Assembly: GCA_963720545.1 (NCBI GenBank)
Contig: OY970399.1
Location: forward strand, 864,001 to 928,000
Origin: an uncultured Acidobacteriota bacterium
GTDB taxonomy: Bacteria > Acidobacteriota > Vicinamibacteria > Fen-336
DNA: 64,000 nucleotides
Direction: 5' to 3'
In this document: one piece after another, positions 37,546 to 50,803 of the stretch
How positions within the stretch are numbered: position 1 is the first letter of the stretch
How the letters are laid out: each line of letters starts with the position of its first letter
Notes under the pieces: model-generated
Told to the model about the DNA's origin: nothing
Database searches by the model: none
The model's input: the letters and a program-made list of their open reading frames with translations, nothing else
Program-made: the position numbers and the translations under genes

Positions 37546-38391
37546 CTAGCCCGTGACCAGGCTCTTCAGGACGAACATCACGTTCTCGGGCCGCTCGCGC
37601 AGGCGCCGGGTGAAGTACGGGAACCAGTGCGTGCCGAAGGGCACGTAGATACGCACGTTGTGGCCGGCGCGGACCAGTTCGTCCCAGCGCTTCGGCCGCA
37701 GGCCGTAGAGCATCTGGAACTCGAAGCGCTTGCTCGGGATCTTTTCCGCGGCGACGTGCGCCAGCACGTGCTTCACCAGCGACTCGTCGTGCGTGGCGAT
37801 CGCCGGGTAGTTGGCCTTGCCAAGCAGGAGCTCCGCGCACGTGCGGTAGTTGGCGCGGATCTCGTCCATCCTCTGGAAAGCCACGGACTCCGGTTCCTTG
37901 TAGGCGCCCTTGCACAGGCGCACCCGATCGCCGCGCTCGATCGCCACCGCGACGTCCTCGCGGGTGCGCCGCAGGTAGGCCTGCAGCACGATGCCGACGT
38001 TGGCGTGCGTCTTGCGCAGCTTCTGGAAGGCGTCGATGGTGCGCTGCGTGTGCTTCGAGCCCTCCATGTCGATGCGCACGAAGCCGCCTACTTCCTTTGC
38101 CACGTCGAGGATGCCGGCGGTCAGCTCCATGCAGAGCGCCTCGGAGATGTCGAGGCCCAGCACCGTGAGCTTCACCGAGACGTTGCGCTCGACGTGCTGC
38201 GGTATGGCGCGCAGCAGCGCGATGTTGGCGGCGGCGGCGCGGCGCGCGGCTTCCGCCTCGGTCACGTCCTCGCCGAGCAGGTCGAAGGTGCTGCGGATGC
38301 CGCGCTGCGCCAGCGCCACGCCGGCGGCGATCGCGGAATCGGCGGTCTCGCCCGCCACGAAACGGCGCGCGAACACGGCGGGCAGTTGCAT
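37546..38391 (-). CDS. Proline dehydrogenase (monofunctional)
   Basis: Motifs RFVAGET, RIDMEGS, LQAYL, RLCKGAYKE, EFQMLYG and YFTRRLRERP. Confidence 0.93.
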   Translation of the reverse strand: MQLPAVFARRFVAGETADSAIAAGVALAQRGIRSTFDLLGEDVTEAEAARRAAAANIALLRAIPQHVERNVSVKLTVLGLDISEALCMELTAGILDVAKEVGGFVRIDMEGSKHTQRTIDAFQKLRKTHANVGIVLQAYLRRTREDVAVAIERGDRVRLCKGAYKEPESVAFQRMDEIRANYRTCAELLLGKANYPAIATHDESLVKHVLAHVAAEKIPSKRFEFQMLYGLRPKRWDELVRAGHNVRIYVPFGTHWFPYFTRRLRERPENVMFVLKSLVTG

Positions 38392-38393
38392 CG

Positions 38394-38777
38394 CTACTTT
38401 CTCCGCGGCTTGCGCCAGCTCGCCTCGACCACGGAGCTGATGCCGCCGCGCACGGCGAAGTCGCCGGTGACGGTGATTTCCCGCGGCGCGATCGCCGCGA
38501 CCAGGTCGTCGAGGATCTGGTTGGTGGCGGCCTCGTAGAAGATGCCGCGTTCGCGGTAGGCGAACAGGTAGAACTTGAGGCTCTTGAGCTCCACGCACAG
38601 CTTGTCCGGCACGTACGCGACGCGGATGGTGCCGAAGTCGGGATTGCCGGTGATCGGGCACATCGCCGTGAACTCCGGGCAGGTGTGGGTGATGGTGTAG
38701 TCGCGCCCGGGACGCGGGTTCGCGAAGGCCGCCAGCAGCGCGGCTGGCGCGGGCTTTCCCCGCTTCTTGCTGGGCAT
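38394..38777 (-). CDS. queF: NADPH-dependent preQ0 reductase (type I)
   Basis: Motifs PEFTAMCPITGNPDFG, ELKSLKFYL and VRGGI. Confidence 0.92.
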   Translation of the reverse strand: MPSKKRGKPAPAALLAAFANPRPGRDYTITHTCPEFTAMCPITGNPDFGTIRVAYVPDKLCVELKSLKFYLFAYRERGIFYEAATNQILDDLVAAIAPREITVTGDFAVRGGISSVVEASWRKPRRK

Positions 38778-38817
38778 GGGCAGAAAAAAGATTGTAGCCA
38801 CTTATGATTGGCACCGC

Positions 38818-40713
38818 TTGCGCTCTGCGTCACTGCCGAACACCTTGTGCCTCGCGGGCGCCGCCCTCCTCGGCGCGCTCGCGCCGGTCGCGGCGTGCCG
38901 GCTCAACCCGCACGTCCTCTTCAACTTCGGGCCATCCGACCACACGTACCTGCGCGGCTTCGAGCCGGAGTGGGAGATCGATCCCGACGGCCTCGCCACG
39001 CACTGGTCGTCGCACTCGGCACGGGTGCTGCTGCCGGCGGCGGTCGCCGGCGGACCCGCGACCCTCCAGGTGCGCGCGGCGCGCGTCTACAGCAACACGG
39101 CAACCACCACCGTCACGGTGAACGGTGCGCCGGTGGACAGCTTCGCGGCGCGCGGCGGACGCTTCGTCGAGCGCAGTATCGCGCTGCCGGACGCGGTATC
39201 GGGAAGCGGGCCGCTCGTCATCGGCTTCGACACCGCCGGCGACGAGGGACGCAACCGCGGCCTGCACCTCGACTGGCTGCGGCTCGATGCGCAACGCCTC
39301 GCGCCGACGGCGCGCGTGGTGGCGCTTGCCGCCGTGGTGAGCCTGGTGTTCGCCGCACTCGCGCTCACGTTCGTCGCGGGTCGTGGGTGGCAGGTGTGCG
39401 CCGCGCTGGCGGTGCCGGCAGCGCTCGCCATCTACGGAGTGGTGATCGGACCGTTCCCGCTTTCCCACCTGCTGCTGCGCACCGGCTGGCTGCTGATCGC
39501 GGCACCGCTCATCCTTTTGTGGCTGGGCCAGCGGGCGGCGACGGTCGAAGCGCGCCTGGCCGTTTGGCTGGCGCCGGTCGCCCTGCTGCTGCGCCTCGGA
39601 GGCCTGTTCCATCCGCTCTATTACTACCCCGACCTGCGCGCGCACGCCGGACTCGCCCGCATCATCGGCGAGGTCGGCCTCGACTTCTGGCGTCATCCCG
39701 CCCACTACATCGAGCAGCAGGGCGTGTGGGCGGAAGCGGCACTCGGCAAGACCTACGCCTTCCCGTTCTCGCCGGTGTTCCACGCGTTCTTCGCGCCGTG
39801 GGCAAGCGACCTGCTGCGTACCATGGACGCGATGAAGCTGGCGGCATGCGTCATCTCGAGCGCCGAGGTGCTGATCGTGTTCGCCATCGGCCGGCGTCTC
39901 GGCTCGCAGCGGCTCGCCATCTGGGCGGCAGCGCTCGCCGTGTTCTCGCCACCGTCCTTCTCACGCCTCGGCTGGGCGTTCCTCGCCGCGATCTTCGCGC
40001 ATTTCTTTGAGAGCCTCGCGCTCAAGACGCTGTTCGACGGCCCGCTTTTGGGACGCCGCGTTGCGGTGTTCGCCGCTTTCCTGCTCGCCGGGCTCGCGTC
40101 ATACCCGGGCAGCCTCATCAATTTCGGCATCTTCGTGCCGCTCGCCGGCGCGGCGTACCTCTTGGGCCGCGAACCGGGCATCCGCAGGGAGGGCCTCACG
40201 CTGCTGGCGACGAGCCTCGCCGTTGCGCTCGCGACGATCGGCATCGTTTACAACGAGTTCCTGCGGACGTTCCTCAGCGACATGTTGCCGCGCTTCGCCG
40301 CCGGCGAGTCGCGCACAGGCACGCTCGGTGCGGTTGCAACGCTCGCGATGATCTGGCGGCGGCTCTACGCTTTCTTCGGCTGGTGGTACGTGCCGGTGTT
40401 CGTGGCCGCCCCGCTCCTGTGGTGGCGCACGCCGCCGGCGCCGCGTCTCTGGCGCCTGTTGGCCGCGTGGGCGCTCACCTTCCTGGCGCTCGTGTTCCTC
40501 CGGACCGCCGCGCCCGACCTCTTCAGCCGCGTGAAGGAAATGCTCTGGGTGTCGCCGCTCGTGGCGCTCGCCGGCGGCCTGTGCCTCGCCCGCCTCGAGG
40601 CGTTGCGGGCACCTGGCCGCGCGGCCGCGTGGCTCGGCTTCGCGCTGCTCGCCGCCTACGGGCTCGCGTTCTACGGCTGGAACATCGCGGAAAAGTTCGT
40701 ACTCGCGAGATAA
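38818..40713 (+). CDS. Multi-TM membrane protein, possible GT-C glycosyltransferase
   Basis: Many TM helices, an extracytoplasmic beta domain, and a PDLRAH loop; sits next to a GT2 gene. Start is uncertain. Confidence 0.6.
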
Positions 40714-40727
40714 TCCCCCGGCCACCC

Positions 40728-41495
40728 ATGCTGCACGGACAAAAAGTGATCGTCGTGCTGCCGGCCTACCGTGCCGAGCGCACCCTCGAGCAGACCTATC
40801 GCGACATCCCCCACGATGTCGTGGACGAAGTGCTGCTGGTGGACGACGCGAGCCCCGACGGCACGGCGCGGCTATCGCGCGAACTCGGCATCCCGACCTT
40901 CGTGCACGAGAAGAACCTCGGCTATGGCGGCAACCAGAAGACCTGCTACCGCGAAGCCCTGGGCCGCGGCGCCGACATCGTGGTGATGCTGCACCCCGAC
41001 TACCAGTACGACCCGCGGCTCGTCACGGCGATGGCGGCGATGATCGCCTCGGGCATCTACGACGTGGTGCTCGGCTCGCGCATCCTCGGCAACACAGCGC
41101 GCGGCGGCGGCATGCCGCTCTACAAGTACGTCGCGAACCGCGCGCTCACCGCCACCCAGAACCTGCTGATGGGCACCAAGCTGTCCGAATTCCACACCGG
41201 CTACCGCGCCTATCGCAGCGGGGTGCTGCGCGACCTGGCGCTGCGCGCCAACTCCGACGACTTCGTGTTCGACAACGAGATCCTGGCGCAGATCGCGGCG
41301 CAGGGCTTCAAGATCGGCGAGATCTCCTGCCCCACCAAGTACTTCCCCGAGGCCAGCTCGATCAACTTCGCGCGGTCGGTCGTCTACGGGCTGGGTGTCC
41401 TCGGGACGAGCATCCGCTACCGGTTGTGGAAGTGGGGACTTGCCAGGCCGCGGATCTTCTCGCGGGATGTGTCGCTGCGATTCAACGCTTCCTGA
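40728..41495 (+). CDS. Glycosyltransferase family 2 (polyprenol-phosphate sugar synthase-like)
   Basis: Motifs [28 protein letters not shown] and VLGSR. Confidence 0.93.
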
Positions 41496-41554: not shown

Positions 41555-44399
41555 ATGGGCGCGGTGTCGGCTGCGGCAGGTGTCCAAGGGGAGTATGCTC
41601 TTGAGCCATCACCACTTAGGTCTCGGCCACTGGACCCCTCCACTTGCGAGTCGTGCGGCAGCGGCGAACCCATTGCTGCCGGCCTCTGCCTGAAATGCTC
41701 CTCCGGCGCGCTCAACACCGAGGATGTCGCTTCTCAGGACCTCGGCGCCGTTTCGAGTGACGCGCCGCCCGGTGGCGGCGGTGACGGACGCCGTTCCCTG
41801 TTCGCGCCCGGCCAGGCGTTCGGCACGCGCTACACGATCGTCGAACAGGTCGGCTCGGGCGGCATGGGCACCGTCTACAAGGCGCGCGACGGCGAGACCG
41901 CGCGCACCGTGGCGCTCAAGCTGCTGCGCCCGGACGTGGTCACGCGGGTCGGCGCCCTGTCGCGCTTCAAGCGTGAGCTGGCGCTGGCGCAGACGATCTC
42001 GCACCCGAACGTCTATCGCGTCCACGACCTCGGCGAGGTGCAAGGCACCGCCTTCATCAGCATGGAGTTCATCGAGGGCCAGAGCCTCGACGACCTGATC
42101 CACTCGATGGGCCATCTCTCGCCGCGCCAGACGGTGGCGATCGGCCGGCAGATCTGCGGCGGCCTGCAGGCAATCCACGAGAAGGCAATCGTGCACCGCG
42201 ACCTCAAGCCGTCGAACATCATGGTGGACCTGAACGGCGTCGCGCGGCTGATGGACTTCGGGCTCGCGTACCAGACAGGCTCCGAGCACCTCACGAGCGA
42301 AGGTCAGGTGCTCGGCACCATGGCGTATCTCTCGCCCGAACAGGCGCGCGGCGAAACCCTCGGCGCCGCCTCGGACGTGTTCGCGATGGGCCTCATCCTC
42401 TACGAGATGCTCACCGGCAAGCGCCCGCCGGGCGACGGCAAGCCCATTCCGCTGGCGCTGCGCGGCATCATCGAACCGTGCCCGAAGCCAAGCGTGTTCG
42501 TCCCCGAGATCCCGAAGGCGCTCGACGCCATCGTCATGCGCTGCCTCGACCGCGAACCGGCGAAGCGCTTCCAGTCCGCCGAAGCGCTGGGCGCGGCACT
42601 CGCCGCCATCGCCGCCGGCCAGACGACGCGCATCTCGCTCGGCGCATTGCGCCGTGCGTCGGGCCCGTACGAGGCGTCACGGCGACGACGCTGGCCGTGG
42701 CTGCTCGCAGCAGCGTTGCTGTCCGCGGCGCTGTTCGCCGTGCCGGCGGTACGCAGCAAGGTCGCGGGAATGTTCGGCCGCCACGCCGCACCGCCGCCGG
42801 TCGGCGTCGAAGTCGTAGGCGTGCTGCCGCTGCGGGTGGCGGCGGGCGATGCCGATGGCCAGGATCTCGCGGTCGGCATCGCCGACATGCTCGCGACCGA
42901 TCTCGACGAGGCGGGTTGCGGCTCGGTCCTGCCGCGCACGGCACTGACACACCTCGGCACCGAGGACGTGGACGTGCGCAAGGTCGCGGCCGACCTCGGT
43001 CTCACGCGCGTCGTCACCGGCACTGTCTCGGGCACGCCAGCGGCGATGCGCATGGAGATCAACACCTTCGCCGCGGACGGCAGCCTGGGCCCCGGGTACG
43101 AGGCCGAAGGCGACGCGCTCACGCTGCAGCGGAAAGTGGCCGACCGCTTGGTGGCAATCACCTGCGTCGGTGGCAGCACGCGCGCCGCGCGCGCGCCCAC
43201 TGGCAACGCGCCCGCTTTCCTCGCCTATGCGAAGGGGTTGCGCCTCCTCGATAGGCGCGACCTGCCAGGCAATGCGGCGTTGGCGGTGACTTCGCTCGGG
43301 GAGGCCACGCGCCTCGACCCCAACTTCGCGCTGGCGCACGCGGTCCTTGGCAGCGCATACATGCGGCGCTACGAGGAGACGCGTGAGACCGCCTACACGC
43401 GCAGTGCGCTCAGCGAGATCAGCAAAGCGCTGATACTCGACGCGACACAGCCGCGCGTGCGGCTCATCTACGCCGATGTCCAGCGGTCCGTTGGCGAAGG
43501 AAAGGCAGCTCGCGACGAGATCGAAAAGCTGATCGCCGATCATCCGGAAAACGACGAGGCGCGAGCCCTCTACAGCACGCTTCTGGCTCAGGACGGCGAG
43601 ACGGCGCGCGCCCTCGAGACGGCGCAGGCCGCCGTGGCGCGGCGGCCGAAATATTTCCAGAACCACGCGGCGCTCGGCTACGCCCATGCGATGCGCGGCG
43701 ACTTGCAGGGGTGCATCGACGCGTACACGGCCGCCACCAGCCTGCAGCCCGACTACGCCGACGGCTTCATCATGATGGGCGCGTGCGCGCAGAACGCGGG
43801 CGACAACCAGCGGCGCCCTCGGCTACTACGAGAAGGCGCGCGCGATGGTCAGCGACGCGACGCTCGACTCGAACATCGGCACCGTGCTCTACGACCAGGG
43901 CGAATTCCGGCAGGCGGCCGCGGCGTACGAGCGCGCCGCGAAAGCCATGCCGGGCGAGATGCTCTTCTGGTGGAACCTCGGCGATGCGCGCGAGCGGCTG
44001 GGCGAGCGCGAAGCGGCGCGCGCCGGCTGGAGCCGCGCGGTGTCGGTCGCGCGCCAGGCACTTTCGGTAGACGGCGAAAACGTCCTGACACGCGCGCGCC
44101 TCGGCCTCTGCGAGGCGAAGCTCGGAATGCTGGCGGAGGCGCGGCGAGACATGGACCAGGCCGTGCAGCTCGCACCCCAACGCGGCGAGGTGCTGGCCCT
44201 GCAGGCCGCGGCGCTGGCGGTGGCCGGGCAAAACGAAGAGTCGCTCGCGGCGCTGCGCAAGGCACTCGCGAACGGCTACAGCCGCGAACGCGCAGCGATC
44301 GACCACGACTTGCGCAGCCTGCGCAAGCTGCCCGAATGGGCCGAGCTGGTTTCGGCCGCACAGACAACGCCCGCGTCCGGGCCAGGAGGAACGCGATGA
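41555..44399 (+). pseudogene. Receptor-type Ser/Thr kinase (Zn-ribbon, kinase, TM, TolB_N-like, TPR) with a 1-nt frameshift at about 43805-43808
   Basis: Motifs GSGGMG, VALK, HRDLKPSN, DFG and SPEQ; TM; TPRs. The TPRs continue in the +1 frame (ORF 43845-44399), collinear with the paralogue. Either a real lesion or an assembly indel. Start is uncertain (possibly CTG 41630). Confidence 0.8.
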
Positions 44400-44878
44400 A
44401 AAGTACTTCGATGGGCGCCGTTTTGCTGTTGGGCACAACGCTCGGCTGCAGTGCGCACCTGTCACCAGTCGACTACTGGCGGCCGCCGAACGAACCGATC
44501 AAGGTGGTGGTGATGCTGCACCCCACACCAGCCAACAAGTGCGTCTCGGTGACGCTGCCGCAGGTGATCTGGGTCGATTCCGGCGACAAGGTGCAGTGGG
44601 ACGTCGTCAACACTTGTCCGGGCAATCCCGAAGTCGTGATGCGCTTCGAGCGCGCCGTGGTGGCGTTCCAGGCGATCGACCGCTTCCCCGGCGACAAGGA
44701 CGCCAAGAAGTACGAGGCCAGACGCGATGGCCGCCAGGAGGAGCAATCGCCGCCTTTCCGCTTTCGCGCCGAGGGCACCGCACAGGGAGAGCGTGGCCTG
44801 CGGGTGAAGTACCGGATCCTCGTGGACAGCCAGGAAGTCGAGGATCCGGGGATCGGGTTCAAGCCGCCGGGAAAGTAG
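44396..44878 (+). CDS. Small exported lipoprotein, beta-sandwich-like (GDxxxW; KY..EDPxI)
   Basis: AGGAGG RBS, ATGA overlap with the kinase stop, and LGC lipobox. Confidence 0.8.
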   Translation: MKSTSMGAVLLLGTTLGCSAHLSPVDYWRPPNEPIKVVVMLHPTPANKCVSVTLPQVIWVDSGDKVQWDVVNTCPGNPEVVMRFERAVVAFQAIDRFPGDKDAKKYEARRDGRQEEQSPPFRFRAEGTAQGERGLRVKYRILVDSQEVEDPGIGFKPPGK

Positions 44879-44887
44879 CGGCGGCGG

Positions 44888-47617
44888 TTGGCCTCGGCGC
44901 TTTGCGACGTCTGCGGAACCGTAACGCCTCCGGGGAGCGGTGCGTGTCCGAGGTGCTCCTCCTCGGACGGCTTCGTCACCGCTGAGGTCGGGTCGGTGCC
45001 GGCCGATGGCCGTGACGAGCCGGTCGGGGCCGCCTTGCGGCGCGGTCCGCTGCTGCGCCTCGGGGAGCGGTTCGGGCCGCGCTATTCGATCGTCGAGCAG
45101 GTGGGCGCCGGCGGTATGGGCACCGTCTACAAGGCGGTGGACAACGAGACCGGCCAGGTCGTTGCGCTCAAGCTGATCCGCTCCGACCGCATCGCGCGCG
45201 CGGGTGCCCTGACGCGCTTCAAGCGCGAGCTGGCGCTGGCGCAGAAGGTCTCGCATCCCAACGTTTACCGGGTCCACGACCTCGGTGAAGTGGACGGCAA
45301 CGCCTACATCAGCATGCAGTACATCGACGGCCAGAGCCTCGAAGACCTGATCCACTCGATGGGCCACCTCTCGCCGCGGCAGACCGTGAAGCTTGGCCGG
45401 CAGGTGTGCGACGGCCTGCAGGCAATCCACGAGAACGCCATCGTGCACCGCGACCTCAAGCCATCGAACATCATGGTGGACACCGCCGGCGTGGCGCGTC
45501 TCATGGACTTCGGCCTCGCCTACGAAACCGGCTCGGAGCACCTGACCAGCGAGGGCACGGTGCTCGGCACGATGTCGTACCTGTCGCCCGAACAGGCGCG
45601 CGGCGAGCGCGTGGGGCCGCCGTCCGATGTGTTCGCGCTGGGCCTCATCCTCTACGAGATGCTCACCGGTCGCCGGCCGCCCGGCGACGCGAGCCCGGTG
45701 CCGCTCGCGATGCGCGACAACGGAGCGAGCTGCCCACGGCCCAGCCAGTTCGTGCCCGAGGTGCCGCGCGCGATCGACGCGCTGGTGATGCGCGCGCTGG
45801 AGCGCGACCCGGCGCGGCGCTTCCCCACGGCTGCCGCGCTGCGCGCCGCGCTCGACGCCATCGAGCCGCCATCCAGCGGCCATGCCACGCCGGCGCGGCC
45901 GCTGTCGCGGCCCTCCGGCGCCTTCGTGGTGCAGCGTTCGAGCCGCTGGCCGTGGCTCGCCGCCGGGTCTGTGGTCGCGGTACTGGCAATCGCGGCGGCA
46001 CGCGGCTGGCTCGCGCCACGGCCGGCGCCCGCTGCCGCGGTGGCGCCGATCATTGGTATTGCGCCGTGGAGCGTCGCGGCGGGCGATGGTGTCGCCGACG
46101 ACGTCTCGGCCGGCCTCGCCGACGGCCTTGCCACCGACATCGGCGACGGCGGCTGCGCAACCGTGGTCGCACGCACCGAGGTGGCGCGCGCCGATCCCGG
46201 AGGCCGCAGCCCCGGCGCCGCCGCCGCGCGGCTGGGGCTGACGCACGTGCTGAGCGGCAGCCTCTCGCGGTCGCCGGCCGGCTACCGCGTCGAGATGAAC
46301 CTGGTGGCTGCCGACGGCAACGTGGTGTCGCGCGTCGCCGACGCCGACAGCGACGCGTTCGCGCTGCGGCGCCGCCTGGCCGATGGGCTGGTGGGTGCGC
46401 TCTGCGTCGGCGCCGCGCGGCCCGTGGCGGCGCACGGCACCACAGACGTCGGGGCCTTCCTCGACTACTCCCACGGACTGCGCCTCCTCGAGCGTTCCGA
46501 CCAACCCGATGCGGTCGCGGCCGCCATCGCGTCCCTCGAGAAGGCGATCGCCGCCGACCCGGCCTTCGCCATGGCGCACGCCGCGCTCGGCGACGCCTAT
46601 CTTGCGCAATACCGGATCGCGCCCAACGAGGTGCTGCCCGGCAAGGCGCTGAACGCCGCAAGCGAAGCGCTCCGGCTGGCGCCGCGCGCACCGCGCGTGC
46701 GCCTCCTCTACGCCCGCGCCAAGCGCCTGATGGGCTCGAGCGCCTCGGCCGCTGCCGAGTTGCACGCGCTGGTCGAGGAGCGGCCGAAAGATCCCGAAGT
46801 CCACGCAGCTCTCGGCGCGCTCTATGTGGATCTCGCCGACTGGCCGAACGCAGTGGACCACTACCAGAAGGCGCTCGCCCTGCGCCCGGACTACTGGGGC
46901 AGCCACGCGCGGCTCGGCTTCGCTTACTTGAAGATGGGCCGGGTGGACGACGCGGTCGCGGCCTACATGCACGCGACCGTGCTGCAGCCCGACAACGCCC
47001 AGGCACTGCAGATGCTCGGGACCGCATACGTCGCGCAGGGCGACCTCCCGCGAGCGCGGGACAGCTACTCCAAGGCGATCGCGCTGCGTCCCGACTCGAT
47101 GTCGTTCCTCAACCTCGGCACGATCGAGTTCGACAGCGGCGACTTCGCGGCCGCGAAGCGCTCGTACGCGCGCGCGGTGGACCTCGACGAGGGCCGCGCG
47201 GCGCTGTGGCGGGGCCTGGGCGACGCGAACGCCGCGCTCGGAATGCGCGACGATGCGCGCCGCAGCTTTGAGGAGTGTGCGCGCCTCTCGCGACTCGCGG
47301 CCAGCCTCGATGGCGCCAATGCCGAGGCGCTCGCGGAGGGCGCGGTGTGCGCACAAAAGCTCGGTGACAGCGCCGCTGCAGAGCGCGACATCGCGCGGGC
47401 GGTGGCGCTCGCGCCGAAGAATGGCGAAGTGCTCTACCTGTCGGCGCTGGTGCGGCTGCTGCAGGGACGCGACCAGGACGCGATCGCGGCGGTACGCGAC
47501 GCGGTCGGCAGCGGCTACTCGGCGCAGCGGCCGAAACAGGACTACGAGTTCCGCAAGTTGCGCGACAATGCGGCATTCGCCAGCGCGCTCGCGGCTGGAC
47601 CGGACGGGAGGCACTGA
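44888..47617 (+). CDS. Receptor-type Ser/Thr kinase (Zn-ribbon, kinase, TM, TolB_N-like, TPR)
   Basis: CDVC..CPRC; motifs GAGGMG, HRDLKPSN, DFG and SPEQ; TM WLAAGSVVAVLAIAAA; multiple TPRs. Confidence 0.92.
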   Translation: MASALCDVCGTVTPPGSGACPRCSSSDGFVTAEVGSVPADGRDEPVGAALRRGPLLRLGERFGPRYSIVEQVGAGGMGTVYKAVDNETGQVVALKLIRSDRIARAGALTRFKRELALAQKVSHPNVYRVHDLGEVDGNAYISMQYIDGQSLEDLIHSMGHLSPRQTVKLGRQVCDGLQAIHENAIVHRDLKPSNIMVDTAGVARLMDFGLAYETGSEHLTSEGTVLGTMSYLSPEQARGERVGPPSDVFALGLILYEMLTGRRPPGDASPVPLAMRDNGASCPRPSQFVPEVPRAIDALVMRALERDPARRFPTAAALRAALDAIEPPSSGHATPARPLSRPSGAFVVQRSSRWPWLAAGSVVAVLAIAAARGWLAPRPAPAAAVAPIIGIAPWSVAAGDGVADDVSAGLADGLATDIGDGGCATVVARTEVARADPGGRSPGAAAARLGLTHVLSGSLSRSPAGYRVEMNLVAADGNVVSRVADADSDAFALRRRLADGLVGALCVGAARPVAAHGTTDVGAFLDYSHGLRLLERSDQPDAVAAAIASLEKAIAADPAFAMAHAALGDAYLAQYRIAPNEVLPGKALNAASEALRLAPRAPRVRLLYARAKRLMGSSASAAAELHALVEERPKDPEVHAALGALYVDLADWPNAVDHYQKALALRPDYWGSHARLGFAYLKMGRVDDAVAAYMHATVLQPDNAQALQMLGTAYVAQGDLPRARDSYSKAIALRPDSMSFLNLGTIEFDSGDFAAAKRSYARAVDLDEGRAALWRGLGDANAALGMRDDARRSFEECARLSRLAASLDGANAEALAEGAVCAQKLGDSAAAERDIARAVALAPKNGEVLYLSALVRLLQGRDQDAIAAVRDAVGSGYSAQRPKQDYEFRKLRDNAAFASALAAGPDGRH

Positions 47618-47618
47618 G

Positions 47619-48185
47619 GTGCGACGATCGAGGCTGGTTCGAAACGTGCTGGCGGCGCCGCTCCCGCTCCTTGCCCTGGCCGCGGCCGCCGCGCCGGCAG
47701 CGGCAGCTACCGTGACGATCACCGTGTTCCTGCGCGTGGACGCCGCCGGCAAGTGCACGACCGTCACGCCCGGTGTCGCCGAAGCGGCGCCCGGCGACAC
47801 GCTCGAGTGGCGGGTGGTGCACGTGCGCAGCGGCGGCAACGGCTGCCCCGCCGCGACGCGCCTGCAGGTGGAGTTCCCCAGGCTCGCCGTCGGCCACGTG
47901 GCGGCACCCGCGGCGCAGCCCGCAGCCGAGCAGGTGGAAGAGGCCGCGTTCACCACCCGGCGCGAGGCGCTCGACCGCCGCCTCGCCCCGGCCGACCGCG
48001 AGAAGCTGCGTCGCTTCGCCACCCGCGCCGAGCCCGCCCCGGGCGGCGAGATGACGATCGGCGCCGCGTTCGCCTCGCGCCTCACCGCGAAGGCGATCGG
48101 CGCGCCTGGTCTCTACAAGTACAACGTGCGCATCGTCGGCGGCGCCATCGAGGACCCGCCGATCAAGATCATGAGCCCGCCCTAG
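47619..48185 (+). CDS. Small secreted protein, paralogue of 44396-44878
   Basis: GGAGG RBS, GTG just after the kinase stop, Ala-rich signal peptide; KC..P..GDTLEW..C and YKYNV..EDPPI. Confidence 0.8.
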   Translation: MRRSRLVRNVLAAPLPLLALAAAAAPAAAATVTITVFLRVDAAGKCTTVTPGVAEAAPGDTLEWRVVHVRSGGNGCPAATRLQVEFPRLAVGHVAAPAAQPAAEQVEEAAFTTRREALDRRLAPADREKLRRFATRAEPAPGGEMTIGAAFASRLTAKAIGAPGLYKYNVRIVGGAIEDPPIKIMSPP

Positions 48186-48194
48186 CCGAAGCCG

Positions 48195-49832
48195 TCAGAT
48201 GTGGACGCCCGGCGCCTCGTGGCCGGTGCGCTCCACGTACTCGACGTACGAGCCCGGGTAGAGGTGCGGCTGCGGTTCGGTGCCGGTCTCGCCGCCCAGC
48301 TCCAGCACGCGGTTGCTGAGGCCGCGCAGGAAGGTGCGGTCGTGAGAGACGAACAGCATCGTGCCCTCGTAGTCGCGAAGCGCCTCGACCAGCATTTCCT
48401 TCGTCGCCAGGTCGAGATGGTTGGTAGGCTCGTCGAGCACCAGGAAGTTGGGCGGGTCGTTCAGCATGCGCGCGATCACCAGGCGCGACTTCTCGCCGCC
48501 TGAGAGCGCGCGAATCTTCTTCTCGACGTCCTCCCCGGAGAACTGGAAGGCGCCGAGCAGCCCGCGCAGGGCGCCAACCGTCTCCATCGGGAAATCGCGC
48601 TGGAACTGCTCCCAGATGGTGAGGCTCGGGTCGAGCAGGTCGAGCGACTGTTGCGCGAAATACCCGAGCTTGAGGCTGGCGCCGAGCTTGACGGCGCCGC
48701 TGTCGGGCGCCAGCTGGCCCGCGACCATGCGCAGCAGCGTCGTCTTGCCGGCACCGTTTCGGCCCATGACGCACCAGCGTTCGCCGCGGCGGATCACCAT
48801 GCTCAGGCCGTCGTGGACCACGCGGCGGCCGTACGATTTCGCGACCGAGTCGAGGGTTGCCACCTCGTCGCCCGAGCGCGGCGGGCGGCGGAAGTCGAAG
48901 CGCACCACCACGCGCTTCTTCGGCAGCTCGATCTTCTCGATCTTCTCGAGCGCCTTCACCCGGCTCTGCACCTGCGCCGCCTTCGCAGCGTGCGCGGAGA
49001 AGCGGTCGATGAAACGCTGCTCCTTGGCGAGCATCGCCTGCTGGCGCGCGTACGCGGCCTCGCGATTCTGCTCGCGGATGGCGCGCTCGCGCTCGTAGAA
49101 GTCGTAATCGCCCGAATACACCGTGATCTCGCCCGAGTCGATCTCGGCGACCTTCGCGACGATGCGGTTCATGAAGGCGCGGTCGTGCGAGGTCATCAGC
49201 AAGGCGCTCGGCACCGACTGCAGGAACTGCTCCAGCCAGAGGATCGACTCGATGTCGAGGTGGTTGGTGGGCTCGTCCATCAGCAGCACGTCGGGCCGCC
49301 CCAGCAGCACCCGCGCCATCGCGACCCGCATCTTCCAGCCGCCGGAGAGGGCGCCGACGTCGCCGTCGATGCGCTCGTCGTCGAAGCCCAGGCCATGCAG
49401 CACCTCGCGCGCGCGGCTCTCGAGCGCGTAGCCGCCGAGGTGGTCGTACTCCTCCTGCACCTCGCCGAAGCGCGCCAGCACCTTGTCCATGTCGTCGGCT
49501 TGTTCGGGATCGCCCATCGCGTGCTGCAGCGCCTCGAGCTCGTGGTGCAGAGAACCGAGCCGGCCGCTGCCGGCGATCGCCTCGTCGAGCACCGAGCGCC
49601 CCGACATCTCCTCGACGTCCTGGCGGAAGTAGCCGATGGTGAGCTTCTTTGGCACCGACACCTCGCCGTCGTCGGCTGTCTCCTCGCCGACGATCATGCG
49701 GAAGAGCGTCGTCTTGCCGGCGCCGTTCGGGCCGACGAGGCCGACCTTCTCGCCCGGATTGAGCTGGAAGGAGGCGTCGACGAACAGGAGTTGCCGCCCG
49801 TACTGCTTGTTGACCGAGGCGAACGAGATCAC
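48195..49832 (-). CDS. ABC-F family ATP-binding protein
   Basis: Two NBDs (GPNGAGKT, LSGGW, DEPTNHLD twice) with a linker and no TM; GTG start overlaps the WYL stop. Confidence 0.93.
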   Translation of the reverse strand: MISFASVNKQYGRQLLFVDASFQLNPGEKVGLVGPNGAGKTTLFRMIVGEETADDGEVSVPKKLTIGYFRQDVEEMSGRSVLDEAIAGSGRLGSLHHELEALQHAMGDPEQADDMDKVLARFGEVQEEYDHLGGYALESRAREVLHGLGFDDERIDGDVGALSGGWKMRVAMARVLLGRPDVLLMDEPTNHLDIESILWLEQFLQSVPSALLMTSHDRAFMNRIVAKVAEIDSGEITVYSGDYDFYERERAIREQNREAAYARQQAMLAKEQRFIDRFSAHAAKAAQVQSRVKALEKIEKIELPKKRVVVRFDFRRPPRSGDEVATLDSVAKSYGRRVVHDGLSMVIRRGERWCVMGRNGAGKTTLLRMVAGQLAPDSGAVKLGASLKLGYFAQQSLDLLDPSLTIWEQFQRDFPMETVGALRGLLGAFQFSGEDVEKKIRALSGGEKSRLVIARMLNDPPNFLVLDEPTNHLDLATKEMLVEALRDYEGTMLFVSHDRTFLRGLSNRVLELGGETGTEPQPHLYPGSYVEYVERTGHEAPGVHI

Positions 49833-50803
49833 TCGAAGCTGCGCCGGGCTTTTTCGATGTCCTTCGCGACCGAGTCGCGCAGCGACGCCGGCTGGATGAC
49901 CCGCGAGTGCGGCAGGAAGCTCTTCACCCACGCCTGCAGCTCGAAGCCGGGCGAGACGTTCATCCGCAGGACCACCGAGCCGTCGGGCTTGTCGGTCAGC
50001 TCCTGGCTCTCGTGCCAGACGCGCTCGCGGATGTAACCCGCGATCTCGGCGTCGAAGGCGATCTCGACCTTCTCCGGCTTGCCGCCGGCGATGCCGAAGG
50101 CGCCGCGGCCGTAGTCGGCGATGTCGAAGTCGGCGGGCACCTGGAACTTCTCGTCGAGCACCTCGATGCGCTCGATGCGCTCCACCGCGAAGGTGCGCAC
50201 CTGCGCGTGTTCCTCGGAGCGCGCGTACAGGTAGAGGCCGCCGTGGTAGTAGACGACGCGGTAGGGATCGAGCGTGTACGACTTGGTGCGCTTCGAGCTG
50301 AACGAGAAGTAGGCGATGCGCGCGCGCCGCTGGTGCAGGGTCGCGTCGATCAGCGCCTCGATCACGTCGCGCTTCTTCGAGTAGTCCTTCCACGGATCGG
50401 GGCGGGTGGCGAACAGCCCCTGCACGCGCGCCAGGTACGGCAGGCTCTTCGCCGGCAGCGCCTCCTGGATCTTGGCGAACGCCGACTCGAGGTCAGCGGC
50501 GAACGGCGAGCCGCCGAGGAACGACATCAGGTTCTTGCTGAAGAAGAGCGCCGACAGCTCGGCGAGCGAGAAGGTCTGCGCGAGCTTCTGGCGGTAGCCC
50601 TCGATGAGTTTCCACACCTTCTTGCCGCTGTCGGCGCGCTCGTCGTAGAGCGGGAAGCCGGCTTCCTGCAGCGCCTCGATGTCGCGGCGGATGGTGCGCT
50701 CGGTGACGCCGTGCTCCGCCGCCATCGCCTGCGTGGTGGTGTAGCGGCCGGTTTCGATCGTCTTCAGGATCCGCCATTGGCGGATCACCTCGGCGTTGCG
50801 CAT
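49829..50803 (-). CDS. HTH-WYL-WCX transcriptional regulator
   Basis: VTERTIRRDIEALQEAGFP HTH; LYLYA..RTFAVERI WYL motif; WHESQ. Confidence 0.92.
   Translation of the reverse strand: MRNAEVIRQWRILKTIETGRYTTTQAMAAEHGVTERTIRRDIEALQEAGFPLYDERADSGKKVWKLIEGYRQKLAQTFSLAELSALFFSKNLMSFLGGSPFAADLESAFAKIQEALPAKSLPYLARVQGLFATRPDPWKDYSKKRDVIEALIDATLHQRRARIAYFSFSSKRTKSYTLDPYRVVYYHGGLYLYARSEEHAQVRTFAVERIERIEVLDEKFQVPADFDIADYGRGAFGIAGGKPEKVEIAFDAEIAGYIRERVWHESQELTDKPDGSVVLRMNVSPGFELQAWVKSFLPHSRVIQPASLRDSVAKDIEKARRSFE

Follow-up and report, generated by a model that had tools for sequence, protein, structure and literature searches.

A 64,000-nucleotide stretch of DNA from an uncultured bacterium of the Acidobacteriota (Vicinamibacteria, Fen-336), here called the window, carries two tandem copies of a two-gene cassette in which a receptor-type Hanks Ser/Thr kinase gene is followed immediately by a gene for a small protein, referred to below as the partner. 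The window is part of a single-contig genome of 4.09 Mb (GCA_963720545.1, contig OY970399.1, positions 864,001 to 928,000), and the cassettes occupy positions 41555-48185 of its plus strand in the order kinase 1, partner 1, kinase 2, partner 2. The cassette is a real, conserved and apparently undescribed variant of a receptor-plus-coupled-partner design, as supported by its architecture, gene coupling, two-way linkage, predicted partner fold and a tandem duplication after which the outer parts diverged fast. No description of such a kinase-partner cassette was found in the literature, where subscription papers were poorly covered. Vicinamibacteria carry dozens of receptor kinases, and we know of no report on their inputs. 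The cassette is a candidate dedicated protein input for one widespread receptor-kinase subfamily, and about 55 natural receptor-partner pairs are open to a direct binding test.

Linkage of receptor and partner genes

The tight coupling described by an earlier, sequence-only reading of the locus was borne out. The start of partner 1 at 44396 overlaps the stop of kinase 1 (ATGA), the GTG start of partner 2 at 47619 lies 1 nucleotide (nt) past kinase 2, and both partner genes have a strong ribosome-binding site. Kinase 2 starts with TTG without a clear ribosome-binding site, and promoter and terminator scans gave no signal above shuffled sequences.

The same arrangement recurs in related genomes, whichever gene is taken as the starting point. 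Among 201 genomes of the class, 26 of the 28 partner matches other than the window's own lie directly after an ectodomain of the window type (one of them after its cap only), the other two being L053 and the weak match L058. At L051:5702-5968 (G136:C11), the receptor is reduced to the cap before an intact partner. A phylum search gave a partner match in 20 of 401 genomes, with seven of ten new loci linked to a receptor; L058, L077 and L078 are weak matches with no receptor directly upstream and may fall outside the family. Conversely, the 65 non-own matches to ectodomain 2 at E<=1e-40 are followed by a separate partner gene in 58 cases, by an in-frame partner domain in one and by no partner in five, while one ends with its contig. 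Those 58 genes comprise 48 identified by profile at E<1e-3, many of them in the training set, and ten identified by inspection, including four variants with S-x-P (hhalign probability 93) and two that are weakly linked (probability 26). As a control, none of ten other TolB-like/tetratricopeptide repeat (TPR) open reading frames (ORFs) in the window genome has a partner. The linkage of partner homologues to kinase-transmembrane (TM)-TPR genes therefore holds both ways (26/28 and 59/65, against 0/10), with the reservation that related genomes are not independent and the counts overstate the independent evidence.

The gap between receptor and partner is at most 30 nt in 51 of 60 cases, with a 4-nt overlap in 23. 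No third conserved gene stands beside the cassette, and flank synteny is confined to clades; in relatives of the window, QueF upstream and a WYL gene downstream recur. The cassette is thus a unit of two genes whose chromosomal sites are stable and lie outside defence islands. The in-frame case (L131:2488-5037, G096:C1) is an ORF of 850 amino acids (aa) that joins the kinase, the helix, two thirds of the ectodomain and the partner domain, and may be a natural fusion, a deletion or a misassembly. Longer fused homologues of the partner were absent among 8000 candidates, which is weak evidence, and a single-protein scan returned two generic TPR matches only.

Receptor distances track partner distances (r 0.54, against a permutation maximum of 0.16), and the receptor tree contains 12 of the 15 supported splits of the partner tree. 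The proposed co-divergence is thus found, yet shared descent explains it equally well because the genes are linked.

Receptor architecture and duplication

Both kinases match Pkinase (E 4e-50 and 1e-52 for kinases 1 and 2) as well as TPR models, and the catalytic motifs VAxK, HRDLKPxN and DFG are intact, as expected of Hanks-type Ser/Thr kinases. Each also has an N-terminal CxxC..CxxC, one hydrophobic helix and a TPR array, so that the architecture given by the sequence-only reading, and the presence of the kinase and small-gene unit twice on the plus strand, were confirmed. The zinc ribbon formed by the CxxC pairs is present in just 9 of 58 receptors. Conserved Asn positions occur in the receptor TPRs. 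In 40 of 52 receptors, Lys and Arg are in excess on the helix flank next to the kinase, and in five the bias is reversed; from hydropathy and charge only, the kinase is predicted to lie inside and the TPR array outside.

An AlphaFold model of ectodomain 2 (predicted local distance difference test, pLDDT, 93) consists of an alpha/beta domain and a TPR superhelix. The alpha/beta domain lies in the region (ectodomain residues 7-124) that was presumed to be TolB_N-like; that label is not supported by Pfam, as no TolB_N match to the window proteins is among the matches listed, and the fold search was filled by TPRs. The Cys pair noted in this region is common to the two window paralogues and restricted to them. 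As a family feature it was ruled out, since Cys is entirely lacking from 14 of 23 related ectodomains.

The two window receptors are sisters in the tree (support 99, long branches) and therefore derive from a tandem duplication. Their kinase domains are 76% identical and their ectodomains 38%, and the partners share 26% identity (E 2e-8), in agreement with the earlier description of similar kinases with diverged ectodomains and partners. Of the 550 family pairs whose ectodomains are 34-42% identical, no other reaches this kinase identity of 76% (mean 44%). Elsewhere, L129 and L130, and likewise L047 and L135, have kinase domains 70-73% identical and ectodomains only 28-34% identical, which suggests exchange of kinase and sensor modules. 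Independent tandem cassettes are found at L049 and L106 (G145:C35), with one lipoprotein partner and one signal-less partner, and genomes G015, G049, G055, G069 and G105 each hold 2-3 receptors of the window type.

The reading frame of kinase 1

The sequence-only reading had treated kinase 1 as an intact frame and overlooked a one-base frameshift. One extra base near 43,810-43,815 splits the gene into 41555-43813 and 43815-44399, and the codon signal changes frame at 43,810. The second part retains coding signal and is 38% identical to kinase 2, and its cap matches NF047558 at 38.5 bits (cut-off 32). As written, the ORF 41555-44878 reads out of frame into partner 1; this 1107-aa kinase-partner ORF was ruled out as a real fusion, as the read-through part has no coding signal. 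A cluster look-up found no intact close relative of kinase 1. Since the same genome has 57 comparable frameshift-like junctions among 3561 coding segments, and close partner 1 homologues from long contigs show shifts or cuts elsewhere, a long-read assembly error is plausible, while the shift may also be a recent real lesion. The earlier idea that the two units provide two specificities does not stand as put, for it needs an intact kinase 1, which the sequence fails to show.

The partner family

A single-sequence search collected 14 partner proteins, and after genome searches the alignment held 61 partners, whose homologues carry source names from Vicinamibacteria. No Pfam or NCBIfam model matches the partners, and PADLOC gave no match for seven partner-type proteins. 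The motifs quoted for the two window partners are indeed common to both, and the most conserved positions across the family are Trp68 (53 of 61), Tyr139 (58), Asp150 (55) and Pro151 (59); the Cys49/Cys74 pair is kept in 41 and 39 partners, respectively.

The partner is predicted to form a cupredoxin-type sandwich with Asp-Pro before the last strand (pLDDT 81). All fold matches listed are cupredoxin-like: amicyanin (Z 8.9), nitrosocyanin (8.8), SO1698 (8.8), FtrB (8.6), MakD (8.6) and PixA (7.0). These scores are ties at a modest level, with SO1698 tied with true cupredoxins. SO1698 is a Shewanella protein that reportedly belongs to the DP-EP family (PDB 3njh and related) and is said to self-assemble. 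The type-1 copper Cys-His-Met loop is present in none of the 61 partners, and no alignment column has His in 30% or more.

Export was called by a hydropathy rule. As the sequence-only reading had it, both window partners are predicted to be exported; one has a lipobox and one a signal peptide, and both have the Cys pair. In the family of 61, a signal or anchor is predicted for 43 partners, 19 of which carry a lipobox, while the remaining 18 lack both. Signal and Cys pair occur together in 37 partners and are both absent in 17, with six having the signal only and one the Cys pair only. The signal state changes at least six times on the receptor tree; across independent pairs, signal and Cys pair always change in the same direction, with only five pairs available (p 0.25). 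The receptors of signal-less partners have a mean helix hydropathy of 2.11 (n=16) compared with 2.21 (n=36), and the charge bias around the helix is the same in both groups.

Several partners depart from the common form. In L111:4902-5297 (G105:C209), the partner is circularly permuted, with the Asp-Pro strand at the N-terminus and no signal peptide, and a further kinase gene follows it. The signal-less partners of L049, L056, L057, L118 and L121 have Lys/Ala/Pro-rich, histone-like tails at the N- or C-terminus; basic tails are found on seven partners and Pro-rich linkers on 14 exported ones.

DP-EP and pNTSase1 proteins in similar gene arrangements

Two other small-protein families, DP-EP (PF08985) and pNTSase1 (PF20301), were surveyed in 401 genomes from the phylum of an alphaproteobacterial locus. 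DP-EP was found in six genomes, directly after a wHTH-nSTAND1-(TM)-TPR gene at all six loci (the helix of the L161 receptor is under the detection threshold). The receptors at these loci (L161-L166) are 1070-1120 aa long, a diguanylate-cyclase-like gene is nearby in all six by inspection, and L162 has two DP-EP genes, one with a signal peptide and one without. pNTSase1 was found in three genomes, always between TIR-TM-TPR and TPR-S-SLOG genes (L170-L172; the last gene in the form TPR-S-SLOG(-cyclase)), and ends in the same Asp-Pro motif. This operon is said to have been described by Burroughs and Aravind in 2020.

Like the window partners, DP-EP has the predicted fold, Asp-Pro before the last strand and the position after a TM-TPR receptor. 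It differs in having no Pfam or profile-profile match to them, wHTH-nSTAND1-TM-TPR receptors with another ectodomain family, and mostly signal-less members. pNTSase1 resembles them in its small size, its C-terminal Asp-Pro-x-Ile/Val and its place behind a TM-TPR receptor (3/3), and differs in the TIR head, the third SLOG gene and an ectodomain of the DP-EP-receptor family; neither a TIR head nor a downstream TPR-S-SLOG gene is present in the window cassettes. All the DP-EP and pNTSase1 proteins found end in Asp-Pro-x-hydrophobic. The DP-EP and pNTSase1 receptors share their ectodomain family (E 3e-35), whereas the window ectodomain matches them at about 1e-11, the level of generic TPRs.

At the sequence level, the DP-EP profile matched none of 42 partners (hhalign probability 0.1) and the pNTSase1 profile gave no match to the partners (probability 0.8), and profile-profile links among the three families (55, 7 and 3 sequences) were not significant. 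In 301 genomes of the window genome's phylum, PF08985 had no match over the cut-off, and two sub-threshold matches were judged to be chance. Partner sequences lie near Atlas clusters of DP-EP (0.75, 0.86) and pNTSase1 (0.81), one cluster with both, and the nearby clusters carrying pNTSase1, one together with DP-EP, score 0.80-0.86; these are leads only. As sequence homology was not detected, any superfamily would have to be argued from fold, motif position, embedding and gene context. It could be speculated, with considerable doubt, that the three families belong to a single superfamily of ligands with a copper-free cupredoxin fold, paired with single-pass TPR receptors that carry interchangeable clustering-activated heads (Hanks kinase, TIR, wHTH-STAND). 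Signal-less members of this superfamily would act as damage signals, reaching the receptor only once a membrane is breached or a sibling cell lyses. An enzymatic role of pNTSase1 is open to doubt; if the superfamily is true, it would be a ligand and not a nucleotide synthetase. The findings also give the orphan DP-EP structure a possible genomic role and put a different reading of pNTSase1 within reach of testing, and a two-gene layout in common links kinase signalling with immune-type TIR and STAND receptors. According to PMC8195603, nSTAND1 occurs in conflict systems. The main text of 10.64898/2025.12.03.692087 leaves DP-EP, pNTSase and kinase unmentioned, and its tables may list the TIR version.

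How the cassette may work

Hanks kinases are activated by dimerisation, and kinase, TIR and STAND heads respond to clustering. Each unit could be a self-contained two-gene sensor, with a single-pass receptor whose Hanks Ser/Thr kinase would face the cytoplasm and whose alpha/beta and TPR domain would lie outside. The translationally coupled small gene would supply a copper-free cupredoxin-fold protein, exported in the window, that attaches to the TPR domain of the receptor encoded beside it. By itself or in oligomeric form, the partner would then decide receptor clustering and kinase trans-phosphorylation. We give an even chance to a sensor of this co-component type, where binding of the partner to the outer TPR domain would control clustering and kinase trans-activation, and we infer the binding, the oligomerisation, the direction of control and the stimulus. 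The DP-EP and pNTSase1 layouts, with other clustering heads, support it, as do the two-way linkage, the short gene spacing, the lack of a third conserved gene, the charge bias around the helix and the L131 fusion.

The design recalls the co-component systems VtrA/VtrC, ToxR/ToxS and TcpP/TcpH, which, according to 10.1101/2022.04.08.487670, likewise pair a single-pass output protein with an overlapping, fast-evolving partner gene. Their output is a helix-turn-helix domain, their outer domain is VtrA-like and their partner lipocalin-like, the two forming a periplasmic heterodimer, whereas the window cassette has a kinase output, an alpha/beta and TPR outer domain and a predicted cupredoxin-fold partner, which is not exported in 18 of 61 cases. 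PknB/Stk1 (NF033483) shares the Hanks kinase, the single helix and an extracytoplasmic repeat domain, but this is PASTA instead of TPR, and the window kinases, at 312 and 300 bits, fall short of the model's cut-off of 450. To our knowledge, PknB/Stk1 has no dedicated partner gene.

Several observations weigh against a sensor of this kind. The 18 signal-less partners are encoded beside receptors that keep their membrane helix, and would be unable to meet the outer domain by the Sec route in an intact cell; by inspection, 6 of 7 DP-EP and 3 of 3 pNTSase1 partners are signal-less as well. The earlier proposal that the small protein is a dedicated periplasmic ligand would therefore fit the window, where both partners look exported, but not about 30% of the family. 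Mean identity is 22% among partners and 39% among ectodomains, which is little for a fixed interface. The ectodomains of L043 and L094 are 82% identical while their partners are at most 30% identical, one being a lipoprotein and the other having neither signal nor Cys, which places them in different predicted compartments. This pair casts doubt on strict cognate specificity. The signal-less, Cys-less type recurs in databases and is therefore not a wrong start. Furthermore, the five receptors without a partner and the partners L053 and L072 without a receptor upstream break the pairing, the L131 fusion is a single case and possibly a deletion or misassembly, and kinase 1 may be a pseudogene.

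The co-component reading has four alternatives. It is unlikely, though credible, that the partner is co-transcribed and co-inherited without being bound to the ectodomain, and serves as an output or accessory protein, self-assembling or, if signal-less, as a cytoplasmic adaptor or kinase substrate. The L043/L094 mismatch and the basic tails speak for this, as do compartment switches (at least six) without a change in receptor topology, and PixA and MakC/MakD among the fold neighbours are not known as receptor ligands (PMC11484084). The two-way linkage, translational coupling, duplication as a unit and the L131 fusion all argue for a closer tie, and the recurrence of the layout under three cytoplasmic heads of unrelated kinds speaks for the TM-TPR part that they have in common.

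We also regard it as rather improbable that the partner is normally kept apart, in the cytoplasm or anchored in the opposite membrane, and reaches the TPR domain to cluster the receptor only on membrane failure or sibling lysis. Such a breach sensor would account for the Pro-rich linkers and for the occurrence, in each of the three systems, of partners that lack a signal next to TM-TPR receptors, and the related TIR and STAND heads are immune-type outputs; yet the 43 exported partners might meet the receptor constantly. Nor do the stable chromosomal places of the cassette, the absence of PADLOC matches for the seven partner-type proteins and the lack of detected sequence homology among the window family, DP-EP and pNTSase1 favour it.

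There is little to expect from self-cleavage at Asp-Pro as in SO1698, by which a freed C-terminal strand or a covalent Asp-Lys link would signal to the TPR groove. The partner model does align to SO1698 (Z 8.8, root-mean-square deviation 2.9, 103 residues aligned), 53 of the 61 partners carry an Asp-Pro that corresponds to D116-P117, a Lys matching K98 by register is found in 31, including both window partners, and the TPRs have their conserved Asn positions. Compared by eye with the SO1698 sequence, Lys138 and Asp150-Pro151 of the partner fall in register with K98 and D116-P117. However, no partner residue corresponds to D37, and the D37A mutant was deposited at full length; four distant partners have S-x-P instead, and in L111 the strand is permuted to the N-terminus. 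The motif may be structural. Finally, we consider it very improbable that the partner binds metal as a cupredoxin and signals copper or iron to the kinase, despite amicyanin, nitrosocyanin and FtrB among the top fold matches and weak plastocyanin profile matches (E 0.6-1), given the missing copper loop and His columns and the absence of metal genes among the recurring neighbours.

Features and neighbouring genes

Table 1 Features of the two cassettes, in window coordinates.
Feature	Position	Strand	Description
Receptor kinase 1, part 1 (753 aa)	41555..43813	+	Zinc ribbon, Hanks kinase, helix, alpha/beta TolB-like domain, first TPRs
Kinase 1 zinc ribbon	from 41645	+
Kinase 1 Hanks kinase domain	residues 93-345
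Kinase 1 membrane helix	about 42692-42751	+
Kinase 1 one-base frameshift	43810..43815	+	ORF split and change of frame in the codon signal
Receptor kinase 1, part 2 (194 aa)	43815..44399	+	Final TPRs with the TPR end-of-group cap
Partner 1 (160 aa), predicted lipoprotein (Cys18)	44396..44878	+	Predicted cupredoxin-fold beta-sandwich
Partner 1 key residues			Cys49/Cys74, Lys138, Asp150-Pro151
Receptor kinase 2, intact (909 aa)	44888..47617	+	Zinc ribbon, kinase, helix, ectodomain
Kinase 2 kinase domain	residues 66-318
Kinase 2 membrane helix	about 45947-46009	+
Kinase 2 ectodomain	46031-47614	+	Alpha/beta domain, TPR superhelix and cap
Partner 2 (188 aa), predicted signal peptide, long insertion	47619..48185	+	Same family as partner 1

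Labelled by inspection, the upstream flank (37546-41495) holds proline dehydrogenase-like, QueF-like, membrane protein and GT2-like genes, and the downstream flank (48195-50803) a convergent ABC-F-like ATPase gene and a WYL-like regulator gene. Genome-wide, there are 36 Hanks kinase ORFs and about 12 TolB-like/TPR proteins.

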